54,707 bases of DNA from an uncultured Candidatus Saccharibacteria bacterium (GTDB lineage: Bacteria > Patescibacteriota > Minisyncoccia > Phycocordibacterales > PALSA-1337): the NCBI GenBank assembly GCA_964357605.1, contig CAYHLX010000006.1, positions 1 through 54,707 of the forward strand, read 5' to 3'. The notes under the pieces were generated by a model. It saw nothing but the letters and a program-made list of their open reading frames with translations. It had not been told where the DNA came from and did no database searches. A program made the translations under genes and the position numbers. Positions 31,134-54,323 of this stretch are shown here, piece after piece. Within the stretch, counting starts at the first letter, position 1, and every line of letters begins with the position of its first letter.

Positions 31134-31176
31134 GTGATGAAGAAATACCTAAGAAATAATAAAATTTTGATAAAAT
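31134..31176 (-). repeat. 43-bp element A, copy 1
   Basis: ATTTTATCAAAATTTTATTATTTCTTAGGTATTTCTTCATCAC; one mismatch to each of the copies at 51817 and 53805. Confidence 0.95.
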
Positions 31177-31283
31177 CTGTAGTTAGGAGACAATTTATTA
31201 GTTATGTAAAGATATTTTCCATATTTATTCATCTGTGGTATTATTTCCTTTAGAAAATTACTTATCATTAATCTTAAATTTTT

Positions 31284-32438
31284 ATGACAACAACAGGCAA
31301 AACAATATCGTGGGTAGTGGTAGCACTGATCATCATCGCGATTATCATAGGGTTTTCAAGGACCCCCAAGGTTGACGAAGGGGTAATAAGTAAGGAGCCG
31401 ATTAAGATTGGGGTAATGGCTCCTCTCACTGGGGATGCTGCGATATATGGTGAACCTGCTATTAACGTCTATAAGATAGCAGTAGAAGAGATAAATACTT
31501 CTGGAGGGATAGATGGAAGAAATTTAGAACTTATTATTGAGGATTCTAAATGTAATGGAAAAGATGGTGCTTCATCAGCTTCAAAATTAGTTAATGTCGA
31601 TAAAGTACAAGTTATTATTGGAGGTATTTGCAGTAGTGAAACATTAGCCGCAGTGCCGGTAGTTGAAACTGGTAAAGTTGCATTATTTTCTCCAGGAGCA
31701 AGTAGTCCTGATCTAACAAATAAAGGTCAATTTTTCTCTCGTGATTATCCAAGTGACGCGTCACAGGGTTCGGTATTGGCAGAAGCTGCTTTAAAATCAG
31801 GTTTTAAGAAAATTGCCTTTATTCAAGAACAGACTGATTATGCGGTAGGCATAACGAAAGCTTTTAGTAGCGTTTTTGAAAAAGGTGGAGGGACAATAGT
31901 TAAAGAAGAATTTCCTACAGAAACATCTGATTTCAGAACAACTCTGACCAAGTTACAATCACAGAAGCCTGACATGTTGTTTATTAATACACAGACAACT
32001 CCAGTATCAGATCGTATCTTGAAGCAAATAACCGCGCTTAATTGGAAAGTTAAAATTTTTGTAAACGACGTGACGATAGATTCACCACAGCTGATTACTG
32101 ATCATTCAAAAATCCTTGAAGGAACAGTTGGAGCGGTATTTAAGGTTGATCCAAGTAACACAAAATTTGCGAAGGTTCTGGCTGATTACAAATTAAAGTA
32201 TGGTGTAGATATGCCTTATCAGTCATATGGACAAACAGAATATGACGCGATCTATCTTATTAAGGAAGCAATTTCAGACGTGGGCTATGATGGGGTAAAA
32301 ATTGCTCAATGGTTAAAAAATGTCAAAAATTGGGAAGGAGCTTCTGGATCAGTTACTATTGGAAGTGATGGAGATCGAATAGGGGGCCATAGCCTTCAGA
32401 TTGTAAAAAATGGAAAGACAGAACCTTATAATCCTTAA
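31284..32438 (+). CDS. Branched-chain amino acid ABC transporter substrate-binding protein (LivJ/K-like)
   Basis: N-terminal TM anchor, IKIGVMAPLTGDAA, EDSKC, GGICSSETLA. Confidence 0.9.
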   Translation: MTTTGKTISWVVVALIIIAIIIGFSRTPKVDEGVISKEPIKIGVMAPLTGDAAIYGEPAINVYKIAVEEINTSGGIDGRNLELIIEDSKCNGKDGASSASKLVNVDKVQVIIGGICSSETLAAVPVVETGKVALFSPGASSPDLTNKGQFFSRDYPSDASQGSVLAEAALKSGFKKIAFIQEQTDYAVGITKAFSSVFEKGGGTIVKEEFPTETSDFRTTLTKLQSQKPDMLFINTQTTPVSDRILKQITALNWKVKIFVNDVTIDSPQLITDHSKILEGTVGAVFKVDPSNTKFAKVLADYKLKYGVDMPYQSYGQTEYDAIYLIKEAISDVGYDGVKIAQWLKNVKNWEGASGSVTIGSDGDRIGGHSLQIVKNGKTEPYNP

Positions 32439-32450
32439 TCAAAGAACAAA

Positions 32451-33581
32451 ATGAAAAAAACAATCTGGATCGTTATAGTAATAGTCATCATCGCGGTAAT
32501 TATAGGAGTGAGCAAGGATTCCGGGGTAATTACAGATAATGAACCAATAAGAATTGGATTCATCGGGCCTCTTACGGGCGACGCCGCTATTTATGGAGAA
32601 ACTGAAAAGAATGCAATTACATTAGCATTGGAAAAAATAAAAAAAGAAGAATATTTTGCTGATCGTCAGATTGATATTATCTACGAAGATGGAAAATGTG
32701 CTGGTAAGGAAGCAGCTACTGCGGCTCAAAAACTAATAAATGTTGATAAGGTTAAATTTATATTTGGCGGTATTTGTAGTGGAGAGACTCTTGGGGCAGC
32801 TCCTCTGGCTGAAACTTCAGGTGTGATTTTGTTCGCCTCATTTTCTAGTGCCCCTGCTATTTCAGATGCTGGTGATTTTATCTTTAGGAATTCTCCATCA
32901 GATATTGACGCTGCAAAGCTTGATGCGGAAGTTCTAGCTTCAAAATATAAAAAAATTGCTATTATCTCTGAAAATGCAGAGTATTCACAAGGTCTTAGAA
33001 AGGCTCTAAGTGATTTGTTAGTAGCTAAGGGAGTGACTATTGTGTCAGATGAAACTTATGCGGCTAATACAAAAGACTTCCGTACAATTCTTACAAAAGT
33101 AAAAAGTACTAACCCAGATGCTATTTACTTTAATCCAGGAACATCTCCGGCTGTGGCAGGACTTATACTAAATCAGACTAGAGATTTAGGGATAAAATCT
33201 CCGGCATATTTCAATTTCTTTATGGGTAATGAAGAGACCATAAAAATAGCTGGTAAAAATGCAGAAGGAGTAATCTTTTCTGATGGTATTGGTCTGACCA
33301 GTGAAAATAAAAACCTTTTAGAAGAATATAAAAATCGATTCGGATCATCTCCAGGAAATGAATATGAATTCGGAGCCGCATACGATAGAACATTCATATT
33401 ACTAAGTGCGATAAAAGAGGTTGGTACTGATCCAGTCAAAGTTAAAGATTACTTATACAACATGCCAGAATATAAAGGCACAGTTGGTTCCTATCGATTT
33501 GATCAAAAAGGGGATATGACGCTTGTTGGATACTCAAGCTATCTTATTAAAGATGGAAAAAAAGAGGCATATAAACCTTAA
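32451..33581 (+). CDS. Branched-chain amino acid ABC transporter substrate-binding protein (LivJ/K-like)
   Basis: IRIGFIGPLTGDAA, EDGKC, GGICSGETL, DFRTILTK. Confidence 0.9.
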   Translation: MKKTIWIVIVIVIIAVIIGVSKDSGVITDNEPIRIGFIGPLTGDAAIYGETEKNAITLALEKIKKEEYFADRQIDIIYEDGKCAGKEAATAAQKLINVDKVKFIFGGICSGETLGAAPLAETSGVILFASFSSAPAISDAGDFIFRNSPSDIDAAKLDAEVLASKYKKIAIISENAEYSQGLRKALSDLLVAKGVTIVSDETYAANTKDFRTILTKVKSTNPDAIYFNPGTSPAVAGLILNQTRDLGIKSPAYFNFFMGNEETIKIAGKNAEGVIFSDGIGLTSENKNLLEEYKNRFGSSPGNEYEFGAAYDRTFILLSAIKEVGTDPVKVKDYLYNMPEYKGTVGSYRFDQKGDMTLVGYSSYLIKDGKKEAYKP

Positions 33582-33680
33582 GCCCCTCCTTTACAAACCC
33601 TCATTTATATAGTAGCGTCAAGAGTGGATTTGTCATGTCGACAAAGCCTCTAAACTTAACAATCAACAGAAAGGTCTTAC

Positions 33681-52639: not shown

Positions 52640-53756
52640 GATTATATCAATTGTTGTTGTTTTGGTTATCATATTGATCCTAATCGGTCTCTATGGTGCT
52701 GGTGAGGAGAAAGTTGAGACGACCGTGGCGCCGATTAAAATCGGAGCTATTATTTCGGAAACTGGTATCGCTGCCGCTTTTGGTGAGATGTCTAGAAAGG
52801 GCATTGATCTTGCGGTAAAAGAAATTAACGAAGCTGGAGGTGTAGAAGGTAGAAATGTTGAAGTCGTCTTTGAGGATGATCAAACAGATCCAAAGGTTTC
52901 TTCCGGTCTATTTCAAAAATTAACCGGGATAGATAAGGTAAGTGCCATCATTGGTAGCAACTTTGATTTCGTCACTCAACCCTTATTCTCACTGGCTGCC
53001 ACAAACAAGGTAGTAGTCATTTCTCCTTCCAACCCTCGAATTCCAGGAGCTTTTGACACGAACAGCCATTCTTTTGTGATGATGACTGAATTTTCTGACA
53101 TCATCAGAGCTTTTGGTGACTATTTCAAAACAGCTGAATACACCCAACTAGGTATCTTGAGATTTGAAAGTGCTTTTGCTGAAGAGATCCAAAATACTCT
53201 CAACACGATGCAAGTAGAAATGGGCAAGAAACCAATAGTAGCAGAGACCTACAAGCAGATTGGTAACAATGATTTTAAAACTCAAATCTTGAAACTAAAA
53301 CAAGCTAAGGTTGATCTAGTTTTTCTAGATATGATCGGTCCGGATCCAGTTACTTTTGTTAATCAGGCTAGTCAATTAAAGTATTTCCCAAAGATCATTA
53401 CTCATATTGGTATTCAAGATGCTCTAGCGATGAAAGAAGTTGATCCTAAGATGTTTGACGGTGCAGTTCTTATTAACTGGAATTTCTCTCCAGCCCCTTT
53501 TATTACCAAGTTTGAGACAGCTTATGGAATGAAGCCAGACAAGTCAGCTAACCGGGCTTATGATGCGGTCTACGTGCTAACTCAAGCGATCCCCAAGGTT
53601 AAAGAGGGAACAGATTTGGCTAGAGTTCTAGAATCGGAAACATTCGTAACTCCAAACGAGCAGTTCAAGTTCAATGCGAACCATTCAGCGGTAAGCACTC
53701 CCGTATTAATCCAAACGATCAAAGAAGGGCAGTTGGTAGAATGGGAGGGGAAGTAG
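52632..53756 (+). CDS. Branched-chain amino acid ABC transporter substrate-binding protein (LivJ/K-like)
   Basis: IKIGAIISETG, EDDQTDP, DFKTQILK, AYDAVYVL. Confidence 0.88.
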   Translation: MKKIISIVVVLVIILILIGLYGAGEEKVETTVAPIKIGAIISETGIAAAFGEMSRKGIDLAVKEINEAGGVEGRNVEVVFEDDQTDPKVSSGLFQKLTGIDKVSAIIGSNFDFVTQPLFSLAATNKVVVISPSNPRIPGAFDTNSHSFVMMTEFSDIIRAFGDYFKTAEYTQLGILRFESAFAEEIQNTLNTMQVEMGKKPIVAETYKQIGNNDFKTQILKLKQAKVDLVFLDMIGPDPVTFVNQASQLKYFPKIITHIGIQDALAMKEVDPKMFDGAVLINWNFSPAPFITKFETAYGMKPDKSANRAYDAVYVLTQAIPKVKEGTDLARVLESETFVTPNEQFKFNANHSAVSTPVLIQTIKEGQLVEWEGK

Positions 53757-53804
53757 GTCTATCTTGACTATTGCCGACAATATAAAATCGTTGTCTAACA
53801 GCGA

Positions 53805-53847
53805 ATTTTATCGAAATTTTATTATTTCTTAGGTATTTCTTCATCAC
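53805..53847 (+). repeat. 43-bp element A, copy 3
   Basis: ATTTTATCGAAATTTTATTATTTCTTAGGTATTTCTTCATCAC. Confidence 0.95.
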
Positions 53848-53867
53848 GGGTTTGTTAGGGTTGGGGG

Positions 53868-54323
53868 ATGAAATACTGTAGCCTATCAAAAATAAGGGAT
53901 ATTTTAGATCGTGTTGAAAGAAATAAAACACACATCTTTTCTAAAGAACCTGAAATGATTGTTGTTTTAAATCAAAACATTTCATCTATCATCACTGATA
54001 ATAATGTTCACATTTCTGAATTTATTGTTGCAAAAATAAAGGGTAGAATTAGAAATAATAGAGGTCATTCAGAAATTAACCAAAAAATATTTTTAAGTAT
54101 CCCTAATACATTAAATAATCCATCTCGTATATACATAGATCATAGAAAAACCGAAAGAAATAAGTATTTATTCGTAAGCTTAAAACCTTCACATCAAATT
54201 GTTGTAGAAGTTAAAAGGATAGAATCAGGAAAGACTGAAATTAATTCTATCATTCCACTAGGTAAAAGGACGCTAAAACAGCTCGGAAATAAATTCCAAG
54301 CTGTTTATAGCGGTTTGCACTGA
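53868..54323 (+). CDS. Hypothetical protein, probable PBECR (Barnase/EndoU/colicin/RelE-like) nuclease domain
   Basis: Pattern H-SE...IP.TL.NP..IY...YLFV...IVVEV...EINSI resembles PBECR domains; recognised by eye only. Confidence 0.55.
   Translation: MKYCSLSKIRDILDRVERNKTHIFSKEPEMIVVLNQNISSIITDNNVHISEFIVAKIKGRIRNNRGHSEINQKIFLSIPNTLNNPSRIYIDHRKTERNKYLFVSLKPSHQIVVEVKRIESGKTEINSIIPLGKRTLKQLGNKFQAVYSGLH

Follow-up and report, generated by a model that had tools for sequence, protein, structure and literature searches.

Phased repeats before DNA-uptake, nuclease and RNA genes of a Saccharibacteria genome as the probable upstream half of a leaderless regulon promoter

The 43-bp element that heads three genes in the window (the whole stretch of 54,707 nucleotides analysed here) quite likely occupies about -65 to -21, the upstream half, of a regulon-defining leaderless promoter. 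Judged by its layout, which is fixed before the same genes across species, the array of repeats in this element is a conserved regulon promoter, presumably serving one co-regulated gene set, rather than a recombination site. Three copies and their extended -10 boxes lie in the window:

31134 to 31176, minus strand: array copy 1, at promoter positions of about -65 to -21, with an exact 29-nt core
31120 to 31128, minus strand: extended -10 box TGCTACAGT of copy 1, at a fixed offset and matching the genome-wide logo tG.TA.aaT
51817 to 51859, plus strand: array copy 2; the complete repeated promoter unit spans 51783-51887 (direct repeat D1)
51865 to 51873, plus strand: extended -10 box TGTTAGGGT of copy 2, at a fixed offset in the aligned copies
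53805 to 53847, plus strand: array copy 3; the complete repeated promoter unit spans 53771-53875
53853 to 53861, plus strand: extended -10 box TGTTAGGGT of copy 3, at a fixed offset in the aligned copies

The 29-nt core, TTATTATTTCTTAGGTATTTCTTCATCAC, has three exact matches in the window (31134-31162 on the minus strand, 51831-51859 and 53819-53847 on the plus strand), where none is expected (100 shuffles gave 0 matches), and in the 43-nt version the 1-2 bases that vary between these copies are confined to the distal part. The element holds TATTTCTT twice, 11 nt apart, as well as ATTTT-ATC-AAAAT. The first-pass annotation was thus correct in describing three copies with 1-2 mismatches, a motif repeated at an 11-bp period with an ATTTT-N3-AAAAT dyad, and a distance of 63 nt from the start of the element to both protein starts (GTG at 51880, ATG at 53868). 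A genome-wide search revealed that the element is not confined to these three payloads; the core occurs 16 times at up to three mismatches (12 of them exact, with 0 for a reversed control pattern) and 19 times at up to five, and four further copies have the distal half in common and a different proximal half. These copies are scattered, not arrayed, and a phage-like contig carries one. The host is a tiny groundwater bacterium with a genome of 692 kb. Within one genome the copies are near-identical, spacers included, and between species the sequences differ, which implies homogenisation by gene conversion; as a transcription factor does not need identity at 29 of 29 positions, including spacers, binding alone does not account for this homogeneity.

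The promoter is ordered as the element, TGnTAnnnT at a fixed distance, a further 6 nt and the start codon. The element contains four ATTT(T/C)(A/T)T-type direct repeats in phase with the helix, their starts in this genome being spaced 11, 8 and 11 bp rather than strictly 11 bp, which is the genus-wide period. The repeats carry conserved non-AT letters (AGG, CATCAC) and reach through -21, and upstream of them this genome has a distal box, TAAC(C/T)AC. In the aligned copies the extended -10 box sits 5-13 nt past the end of the core, and the longest ORF starts exactly 20 nt past the core in 10 of the 19 copies; of the others, two can be read in frame from +20 and one starts at +21. The leaderless form also occurs genome-wide: counted back from the first ATG, TAnnnT begins at -12 in 110 of the 706 long ORFs, compared with about 20 at most other positions, and 102 promoters that do not carry the element yield the logo tG.TA.aaT and no -35 box. 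The array itself is carried by only 20-odd of several hundred promoters.

Pfam assignments place the array before ComEC, ComM, a pilin, a PilB-type ATPase and rpsF-ssb-rpsR in this genome. The payloads comprise genes for DNA uptake and processing (pilin, PilB-type ATPase, ComEC, ComM, SSB and a secreted SNase-family nuclease), stand-alone nuclease toxin-like proteins (MazF-like, PBECR-like, DUF3800, NYN and a HicAB pair) and, as a third class, tRNA-like RNAs. Upstream of the PilB-type gene the layout is conserved, with letters that are species-specific: T[GA]nTAnnnT, 6 nt and ATG are found in 25 of 30 species of the genus, and the 48 nt upstream of the -10 box have a self-match of 0.63 at lag 11, against 0.34-0.41 elsewhere (n = 24). 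The four-repeat pattern is present in 38 of 44 congeners, typically at 5-31 per genome (control, 0-3). Half of the array loci in genomes G021 and G043 (10/20) encode homologues of the payloads described here, namely ComEC (two), pilin (two), ComM, PilB, S6 (of rpsF-ssb), MazF and two PBECR-like genes, and three more bear, by eye, a tRNA-like RNA or an S6 leader. Fixed spacing of the element from -10 box and start codon, phased repeats and a conserved gene set all argue for the shared regulator-bound promoter that had been offered as one reading of the element.

Behind copy 1 lies a pair of RNAs:

31018 to 31090, minus strand: tRNA-like RNA (acceptor stem of 7 bp, short D-like hairpin, T arm)
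30972 to 30999, minus strand: promoter of the partner sRNA, TTGACT-16-TATATT, its TTGACT invariant in 10 of 10 homologous loci
30893 to 30965, minus strand: partner sRNA with a terminator hairpin at 30902-30917 (fold z -3.3)

In the tRNA-like RNA the loop of one arm is 9 nt long (CCUCAUCAA), and leader and trailer lengthen the acceptor stem (about 30995-31117). ARAGORN calls it an odd tRNA-Met, the Rfam tRNA model scores it below the gathering score, and its best match in the Rfam clan is tmRNA, at 20 bits and below the tmRNA gathering score. Pairing in the acceptor stem and T arm is 100% across 10 homologues, among which the discriminator A is invariant and G3:U70 is found in 7. The partner sRNA has complementarity to the tRNA-like RNA, its 5' part (30964-30949) matching 31070-31055; in this 16-pair helix 89.2% of cells are paired (slid controls, 45-59%), compensatory changes affect 11 of the 16 pairs, and the score of the helix is reached by 0 of 500 shuffles.

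Copies 2 and 3 head protein cassettes:

51880 to 52479, plus strand: DUF3800 gene, leaderless, its GTG start (51880) 6 nt past the -10 box
52556 to 52583, minus strand: convergent promoter TTGACT-16-TAATAT, preceded by TG, 3' of the DUF3800 gene
52480 to 52549, minus strand: candidate convergent sRNA, ending in a hairpin and U run beside the DUF3800 stop codon
53868 to 54323, plus strand: PBECR-like gene, 151 aa, leaderless ATG (53868)
54394 to 54423, minus strand: convergent promoter-like site, TTGCAA-18-TAGACT, whose -10 hexamer has TG one base ahead of it
54361 to 54376, no strand assigned: conserved 3' motif, read on the minus strand as CTGACGCCAAAAAGGC, recurring at 0-1 mismatch behind each of the two PBECR genes of G000

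The DUF3800 protein, scored as the product of 51877-52476, matches Pfam DUF3800 at 58.4 bits, above the cut-off, and PADLOC DUF3800_VII at 30 bits; the gene is patchy, being present in 5 of 44 congeners. The candidate sRNA convergent with it has a fold z of -4.2, and the G054 DUF3800 gene is followed by homologous 3' sequence in which, by eye, stem letters have changed. The PBECR-like protein is a weak match to Pfam PBECR2 (20.2 bits against a cut-off of 27.1), and a paralogue on contig C11, with 31% identity over 67 aa, passes PBECR3 (32.3 bits against 30). Orthologues with the array are found in G051, where the protein has diverged and the array is still recognisably the same, and in G043. 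Equivalent convergent promoters stand, by eye, 3' of the PBECR genes of C11 (also recovered by a strict scan), G051 and G043, and a motif related to CTGACGCCAAAAAGGC is seen by eye in the latter two. The palindromic TTGCAA at 54394-54423 also serves the plus-strand promoter of the next gene. Both protein cassettes are accessory: in a related strain 51761 is followed immediately by 54415. The PBECR cassette in run X3 has 1 changed base out of 627, compared with 2-7% in the flanks.

The annotation had placed a small structured RNA, transcribed from a promoter of its own, behind every payload, which is clear for the tRNA-like RNA and likely for DUF3800; behind the PBECR-like gene the convergent promoter and conserved motif are present, although the fold of the RNA is not significant (z -0.6). 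Its proposal of RNA control is favoured at copy 1 by the covarying complementarity and gains partial support at the two protein genes from convergent promoters and conserved 3' RNA sequence. To call all three unrelated toxin-like payloads was an overstatement, because nothing indicates that the tRNA-like RNA is toxic.

From this arrangement we infer a scheme in which the repeats would stand in for the -35 box and transcription would begin on the start codon itself, at its A or G, 6 nt past TGnTAnnnT. An activator probably binds the array as tandem units on one helix face, and this protein may activate or gate RNA polymerase. Several payloads, some of them putatively toxic, would each have a small RNA partner, expressed from a canonical TTGACT-type promoter, that restrains the payload until the array promoter is induced to fire, and gene conversion would keep the copies within a genome alike.

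The leading candidate for the bound protein is the only OmpR/PhoB-type response regulator of the genome, an assignment that we consider possible but somewhat doubtful. The genome encodes one Trans_reg_C protein and two receiver domains, and no LytTR domain was found in it. A variant array begins at the stop codon of the regulator gene and precedes its kinase gene, within the two-component operon, and the regulator has an orthologue in 42 of 44 congeners. However, the link to the array is weak: no more than 4 of 30 species have the array directly behind the regulator gene, and half-sites vary (e.g. TTTATC, TTCATC, CTTAAT) under a recognition helix that is almost invariant among 30 species. Two congeners with arrays, G041 and G045, yielded no regulator orthologue, but the gene may simply be missing from their assemblies, G041 being 91% complete and G045 lacking the whole neighbourhood.

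Other explanations have been considered for an AT-rich block at this position. Phased AT tracts could act as an UP element or as curved DNA recruiting the alpha subunits of RNA polymerase, giving a strong, factor-independent promoter with constant high expression. In favour of this are the location (-65 to -40) and the A/T tracts, the likeness of AAAATTTTATT, at -55 to -45, to the distal UP subsite consensus, the lack of a -35 box in the general promoters here, and payloads of kinds that often need strong promoters (a ribosomal protein operon, pilin, tRNA-like RNAs). This is nevertheless unlikely, given repeats that run through -21 with conserved AGG and CATCAC, their restriction to a small minority of promoters and the variant array inside the two-component operon; constant high expression of several stand-alone nuclease toxins would also be hard to square with viability. 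It is very improbable that the array is a DnaA filament site, in which a distal DnaA box nucleates binding along weaker sites 11 bp apart, comparable to the low-affinity DnaA arrays of E. coli oriC, and couples the regulon to replication status. Although the box upstream of the PilB array is TTATCCACA or one base off in 13 of 29 relatives (by eye), and TTATC occurs within repeat units of 11-bp period, TTATCCACA is found in 0 of the 19 copies, whose box is TAAC(C/T)AC; the boxes of G021 and G043 are different again, a drift in specificity not expected inside a genus, and the CACA half of the box is absent from the repeat units.

Little credence can be given to a transcribed 5' leader RNA, such as a translation enhancer. 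In its favour, the distance from block to start codon is fixed, and by eye about 12 of the 19 copies show a TTGACA-like hexamer some 40 nt upstream of the array (near -104); as a second promoter, this hexamer could turn the array into a transcribed leader. Against it, the same AU-rich block also precedes RNA genes, the spacer to the -10-like hexamer is 19 nt or the hexamer lacks its final T, and TGnTAnnnT, 6 nt and ATG is the general promoter form of this genome. In some copies the TTGACA-like hexamer falls in the loop of an upstream terminator hairpin. We regard as equally far-fetched the second alternative of the first-pass annotation, the capture and exchange of cassettes by a mobile promoter or at a site-specific recombination site. 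It draws on the near-identity of copies within a genome and their difference between species, the absence of both window cassettes from the related strain, the patchiness of DUF3800, the near-identical PBECR cassette of run X3 and the copy on a phage-like contig. Against this, array place and spacing are kept at orthologous PilB (25 of 30 species) and, in two further species, at ComEC, ComM and pilin orthologues, so that retention by core genes in the relatives examined contradicts interchangeable cassettes, as do the ComEC, ComM, pilin, PilB-type and rpsF-ssb-rpsR genes headed here. Moreover, no terminal inverted repeats or hairpin-forming site bound the two cassettes, the copies are scattered, and the ORFs and Pfam matches examined include no recombinase gene beside the three window copies.

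A regulon promoter of this design has several counterparts. Pho-box-type promoters of OmpR/PhoB-family regulators, including arrays of four repeats for E. coli PhoB and B. subtilis PhoP, likewise have T-rich direct repeats of 6-8 bp at an 11-bp period on one helix face, which replace the -35 box just upstream of a good -10 box and offer several units for two dimers, with a cognate two-component system encoded. Here binding is presumed, the half-site differs, the promoters are leaderless, the copies are almost identical including spacers, and the genes served are those of DNA uptake, toxins and RNAs rather than of phosphate uptake. In competence regulons (ComK boxes in Bacillus, the ComX cin-box in streptococci, CRP-S sites in Haemophilus) one cis element similarly joins pilus or pilin genes, ComEC, ComM, SSB and killing factors, but the present array is one of phased repeats, with no ComK-type or sigma-type motif, and its toxins are intracellular-type nucleases.

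The convergent promoter behind a toxin gene, with an RNA overlapping or abutting the 3' end of the toxin message, recalls type I toxin-antitoxin systems with convergent antisense RNA, such as txpA/RatA, whose small membrane peptides differ from the 150-200-aa nuclease-family proteins found here, for which toxicity and antisense action are putative. The tRNA-like RNA shares G3:U70, an invariant discriminator A and a canonical T arm, as well as pairing with a second RNA, with the tRNA-like domain of tmRNA, tRNA-Ala minihelices and type VIII RNA-RNA pairs such as CreTA. It differs from these in the variable 9-nt loop of the arm that pairs with its partner, and from tmRNA in having no tag reading frame, a normal tmRNA being encoded elsewhere in the genome. 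Finally, promoter propagation and mobile promoters are known in bacterial genomes and also place many near-identical copies before unrelated genes of one genome; in contrast, the positions described here are orthologous across species and their sequences evolve in concert, which points to homogenisation in place rather than spread.

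The 43-bp element occurs three times in the window, at the head of one RNA gene and two protein genes:

31134-31176 (-): element copy ahead of the tRNA-like RNA at 31018-31090 (-), whose partner sRNA lies at 30893-30965 (-)
51817-51859 (+): element copy ahead of the DUF3800 gene at 51880-52479 (+)
53805-53847 (+): element copy ahead of the PBECR-like gene at 53868-54323 (+)

The internal layout described in the first-pass annotation was recovered in full. The three copies agree at every base of a 29-nt core, TTATTATTTCTTAGGTATTTCTTCATCAC (31134-31162 (-), 51831-51859 (+) and 53819-53847 (+)), for which 100 shuffles gave no match, and the one or two mismatches among the full 43-nt copies all fall in the distal part. 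The element contains TATTTCTT twice at a distance of 11 nt, together with the small dyad ATTTT-ATC-AAAAT, and in both protein genes the start codon follows 63 nt from the element start. Across the whole source assembly (G000; 692 kb in 21 contigs, the window being contig C6; 99.5% complete, ~40% G+C, 16S rRNA not found), the core recurs 16 times at up to three mismatches (12 exact copies, three with one mismatch and one with three) and its reversed control has no match. Allowing five mismatches brings the number to 19, four further copies keep the distal half and differ in the proximal half, and some weaker variants were also detected. These copies are dispersed over 13 contigs. When aligned, they are conserved from ~85 nt to 7 nt upstream of the start codon and carry four repeats of the form ATTT(T/C)(A/T)T per element, whose starts are 11, 8 and 11 nt apart, forming an array that is flanked on its 5' side by a semi-conserved TAAC(C/T)AC box and the T-rich tail of an upstream terminator. 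About 12 of the 19 copies also show, by eye, a TTGACA-like hexamer some 40 nt 5' of the array, its distance from the array varying little; in some of them it sits inside the loop of an upstream terminator hairpin.

Directly 3' of the core lies cacTaTGCTAnnnT, which holds an extended -10 box, TGnTAnnnT, at offsets 5-13. In the aligned copies the core ends at -21 and this box spans -15 to -7, with no TTGACA at -35. The longest open reading frame starts exactly 20 nt from the core in 10 of the 19 copies and at +21 in one, and two more have an in-frame start at +20 (the GTG at 51880 and an ATG on contig C16). This fixed distance therefore places the start codon 6 nt after the -10 hexamer, at the usual transcription start point, and the spacing of box and codon would thus have the element occupy about -65 to -21 and take the place of the -35 box. 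Leaderless transcripts seem, from the distribution of -10 boxes, to be the rule in this genome: in 110 of its 706 long open reading frames the first ATG has a TAnnnT beginning at -12, against ~20 at most other positions, and the logo of 102 such promoters without the element reads tG.TA.aaT, with the -35 signal absent. The binding-protein genes beside the two window cassettes both have TTGCAA-16-TAGAAT, 6 nt and an ATG. These genes (52632 and 54452, branched-chain type) share a 54-nt unit, 94% identical between 52592-52645 and 54412-54465, which holds a leaderless promoter, and its palindromic TTGCAA could also serve a convergent promoter on the opposite strand. Two sigma factors of RpoD length were noted, a 401-aa gene at 37524-38729 (+) of the window and a 445-aa open frame on contig C13 (C13:1209-1421), as were two open frames of 190 and 207 aa for small sigma-70-family proteins. 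On this sequence evidence the element is a promoter, and the earlier suggestion of a shared, regulator-bound promoter is borne out as to the promoter by the fixed spacing of -10 box and start codon, the binding of a regulator being probable.

The genes headed by the array extend beyond the three in the window, as listed below.

Genes headed by the array in G000 (payload families assigned by Pfam; 16 close copies, three diverged copies and four alternative-half copies)
Close copies: four PBECR-like or related small proteins (contigs C2, C6, C11 and C17)
Close copies: two PemK/MazF-like proteins
Close copy: DUF3800 protein (58 bits; window)
Close copy: DUF2283, starting 122 nt downstream
Close copy: ComEC
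Close copy: YifB/ComM-type ATPase
Close copy: pilin with N-methylation motif
Close copy: PilB/GspE-type ATPase
Close copy: rpsF-ssb-rpsR, with a 181-nt leader between
Close copies: three tRNA-like RNAs
Diverged copies (three): NYN protein; staphylococcal-type nuclease; third PemK-like protein
Alternative-half copy: histidine kinase of the sole OmpR-type two-component system in G000
Alternative-half copy: HicB-HicA pair
Alternative-half copy: 892-aa protein
Alternative-half copy: 151-aa coiled-coil protein

The proposal that the payloads are toxins alone could not be kept: machinery for DNA uptake and DNA processing makes up about a quarter of the set, which is therefore wider than toxins. Assignment of the toxin-like members rests on scores of varying strength. 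Scored with the PBECR families PF18810 and PF18812, the window PBECR-like gene has a weak PBECR2 match of 20.2 bits, under the cut-off of 27.1, and its C11 paralogue exceeds the PBECR3 cut-off (32.3 against 30); of the other two genes, that on C2 reaches 16.8 bits and that on C17 has no match. PADLOC run on G000 returned weak DUF3800 and NYN matches only, and NCBIfam gave zero matches for the four toxin-like proteins tested. Two of the payloads carry leaders of their own. The 181-nt leader before rpsF-ssb-rpsR (C4:2500-2680 (-)) contains a hairpin, GCCAnTnACCATGGCG, which is kept in the relatives G021 and G043 (loci L157 and L168) and may be a ribosomal-protein leader. The pilin genes are not leaderless, having a leader of ~30-45 nt (C10:23870-23915 (-)) that can fold (CATTATT...AATAATG) with the start codon within the stem, and similar leaders are present in G021 and G043 (loci L163 and L172).

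None of 40 other genomes, of which 24 are congeneric, has the exact 29-mer, but the architecture is common to the genus. A PilB-type gene is present in all 44 congeners, and in the PilB loci read from 29 relatives and G000 the arrangement T[GA]nTAnnnT, 6 nt, ATG is found in 25 of 30. Over the 48 nt upstream of the PilB -10 box, self-identity at a lag of 11 is 0.63, compared with 0.34-0.41 at the other shifts of 7-15 (n=24). Four TTTAT(C/Y) units at 11-nt spacing, taken as a search pattern, occur in 38 of the 44 congeners, typically 5-31 times per genome, with 0-3 occurrences per genome for the reversed control. The TTTATC-type pattern is essentially confined to the genus, since one or two matches, much like the control, were obtained in 8 of 60 other families. 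Twenty array loci were fetched from G021 and G043. Those of G021 include arrays heading ComEC, ComM, pilin, the PilB-type ATPase and a PBECR-like protein as well as, judged by eye, the tRNA-like RNA and the S6 leader, and those of G043 include arrays heading ComEC, S6, pilin, the tRNA-like RNA and orthologues of the MazF-like protein of contig C3 (66% identity) and of the window PBECR-like protein (44% identity). In G051, another relative, a variant array is still recognisable before the PBECR orthologue and the PilB gene despite the divergence of the proteins. Within a genome the array copies are nearly identical, spacers included, whereas between species they differ. As judged from these alignments, the array defines a regulon conserved across species, and the near-identity of its promoter copies within species, set against divergence between them, makes it a clean case of concerted evolution among dispersed promoters.

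Tandem-binding activators of the OmpR/PhoB family characteristically use phased direct repeats in place of a -35 box. As in a class II promoter of this type, the array has direct repeats, for which the lag-11 signal in 24 species agrees with a period of 10-11 bp, it stands where a -35 box would be with a constant interval to the -10 box, and G000 encodes a cognate candidate with Trans_reg_C and receiver domains and an adjoining kinase gene. This is the only OmpR-type regulator in the genome; the one other receiver domain lacks an output domain, and LytTR proteins are absent. A variant array starts at the regulator stop codon, ahead of the kinase gene, but an array directly after that stop codon is found in only 4 of 30 species, which counts against this regulator. 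Orthologues of the regulator are present in 42 of 44 congeners, and of the two array-bearing congeners that gave none, one is 91% complete and the assembly of the other is without the whole neighbourhood. The near-invariance of the recognition helix, beside half-sites that vary, likewise counts against it. No NCBIfam model matched the regulator above the curated cut-off. Between the response-regulator and kinase genes (C8:7180-7390; L049:1283-1500, minus strand) the variant array is followed by a hairpin with the loop A(A/G)GGUCG, which recurs in the relatives G051, G019 and G044 with changed stem letters. We tentatively put forward the OmpR-type regulator as the protein that reads the array, and regard recognition of the array by some other protein as rather unlikely. 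It is improbable that the array works independently of any factor as an UP-type element, and quite implausible that it is a transcribed leader. DnaA as the reader is very improbable: it is suggested by a distal box, TTATCCACA, that is exact or one base off at the PilB promoter in 13 of 29 relatives (by eye), but a box of this type occurs in none of the 19 G000 copies and the distal box is different in G000, G021 and G043.

The first-pass annotation also entertained a recombination site organising interchangeable cassettes. This part of it fell, and a mobile or recombination site is now quite implausible, because the array is kept at orthologous positions across species, the window cassettes have no bounding inverted repeats and the copies are scattered over so many contigs. 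An integron attC or similar site was rejected on the same absence of a bounding inverted repeat, on the dispersal of the copies and on the lack of an adjoining recombinase gene, none having been found beside the three window copies among the open reading frames and Pfam matches examined. A MITE or IS end was likewise rejected in the absence of terminal inverted repeats, the region 51700-54470 showing just two direct repeats, D1 and D2. A search for sequencing runs listed 13, from 4 studies, all of DNA and none of RNA, and contigs compared with the window showed strain variation only. The cassettes themselves do vary. On a contig from sequencing run X13, ~90% identical to the window, 51761 is joined to 54415 with 10 other letters between, and this contig is therefore without the DUF3800 gene, the middle binding-protein gene and the PBECR-like gene; of the 44 congeners, 5 have DUF3800. 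Run X3 shows a single difference over the 627 positions of the PBECR cassette (53819-54445) as against 2-7% in pieces at 46000-51707, with no cover listed over 52111-53565, and this cassette may have moved recently between strains. On these comparisons the window cassettes are accessory, which, together with the conserved positions of the array, would mean that toxin genes enter the regulon by carrying or acquiring it; nothing in these data makes the array itself what exchanges them. A contig from run X2 joins 54417 to 52598 via a 44-nt repeat of the binding-protein promoter; this may be an assembly path, and the contig was left out of account.

A metagenome scan with a 19-mer gave 42 stretches, of which only 8 have the full element, the remainder being chance 19-mer matches. 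Seven of these 8 come from one assembly and match G000 loci, and the eighth is a phage-like contig (L080:4361-6312) with a terminase and a portal matching PHROG 156. At its end a full array, reversed in orientation, overlaps the final codons of the portal frame and is followed by ~100 nt with 88% identity to the upstream region of a G000 gene (C8:12488-12594), whose first residues resemble those of an enolase. A chimeric contig, a prophage junction or an array copy borne by a phage could each account for this.

The further proposal that every payload is followed by a counter-RNA with its own promoter stood for the tRNA-like RNA, whose partner covaries with it, and probably for DUF3800; for PBECR a promoter and a motif were seen, the fold being not significant. 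At the DUF3800 gene a minus-strand promoter, TTGACT-16-TAATAT, leads to a predicted 70-nt hairpin RNA with its U run at the stop codon (fold z -4.2). The DUF3800 gene of the relative G054 has no array, yet it has the same RNA with changed stem letters, and those of G016 and G047 have another convergent RNA common to both (all by eye). All four PBECR loci read show, by eye, a canonical promoter convergent to the gene and related motifs on the 3' side, and the fold test of the 3' RNA of the window gene was not significant. Beyond its TGA stop the G051 orthologue has sequence similar to the final 10 codons, and to the 3' flank, of the longer G043 gene (L047 and L173). In some species the conserved 3' region of PBECR may be translated or reached by readthrough. 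In a strict scan, 4 of 10 toxin-like payloads have a canonical promoter on the opposite strand within 160 nt and none of the 5 other payloads does, the background being 0.069 per 160 nt. The payloads, of the DUF3800, PBECR and PemK families, are proteins of 122-200 aa and not the small hydrophobic peptides of type I toxins.

The tRNA-like RNA was aligned from ten homologous loci in 8 genomes. Its 7-bp acceptor stem is paired in all ten, with G-U as pair 3:70 in seven, the discriminator A is invariant, and the arms comprise a 4-bp D-like hairpin, an arm with a 9-nt loop and a canonical T arm. On its 3' side all ten loci have a second gene, with a -10 box, a terminator and a -35 box that is TTGACT in every case, and the 5' part of this putative partner sRNA shows complementarity to the 9-nt-loop arm, in its 5' strand and loop. 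The helix so formed would have 16 pairs, with 89.2% of cells paired as opposed to 45-59% with the partner slid; both sides have changed in 11 of the 16, and the covariation score was reached by none of 500 shuffles. Such covariation is strong evidence that the two sequences pair. A third paralogue of the module, at C3:17259-17474 (-) behind a diverged array, has a loop, CCUCGUCAG, and a partner, CUGACGAGG, that have changed together. Neither RNA matched an Rfam family at the gathering score. A standard tRNA was rejected, as RF00005 at its gathering threshold matched only the tRNA-Glu gene of the window and not 31018-31090, and ARAGORN calls one of the three paralogues headed by an exact element. 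The best match of the tRNA clan at 31018-31090 is tmRNA, at 20 bits against a gathering score of 47; this identity was also rejected, the RNA being only 73 nt long and a full tmRNA lying on contig C20. TROVE/Rsr was not found in the family search, and the idea of a Y RNA was therefore dropped.

A broader scheme can be drawn, although as a whole we consider it unlikely. One array would turn on both DNA uptake and weapons directed at the cell's own RNA-level functions, each weapon being held by its own constitutive counter-RNA. The tRNA-like RNAs, which have an alanine-type acceptor stem (G3:U70, A73) and variable anticodon-like loops, could be chargeable decoys or mistranslating tRNAs, neutralised by a partner sRNA that would unfold the anticodon arm; if this is true, the pair is an RNA toxin with an RNA antitoxin. 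Identity of the array at more than 20 sites would be maintained by gene conversion, fed by constant uptake of own-species DNA, and we know of no description of such homogenisation for promoters. The genomes of Patescibacteria are tiny and encode few regulators, and experimental genetics hardly exists for the group. A single, easily recognised cis element offers a handle on their regulation: it marks a regulon that takes in DNA uptake, SSB, nucleases and toxins along with new small RNAs, indicates what genes should respond as a set and provides a defined DNA bait for finding the regulator. The result listings and abstract openings from a full-text literature search contained no description of the array, the regulon or the RNA pair. 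In kind, an activator-type promoter array that defines a regulon and toxins guarded by antisense RNAs are known; what is new is the content of the regulon in a poorly known group, the concerted evolution of the array, and the tRNA-like RNA with its partner sRNA.
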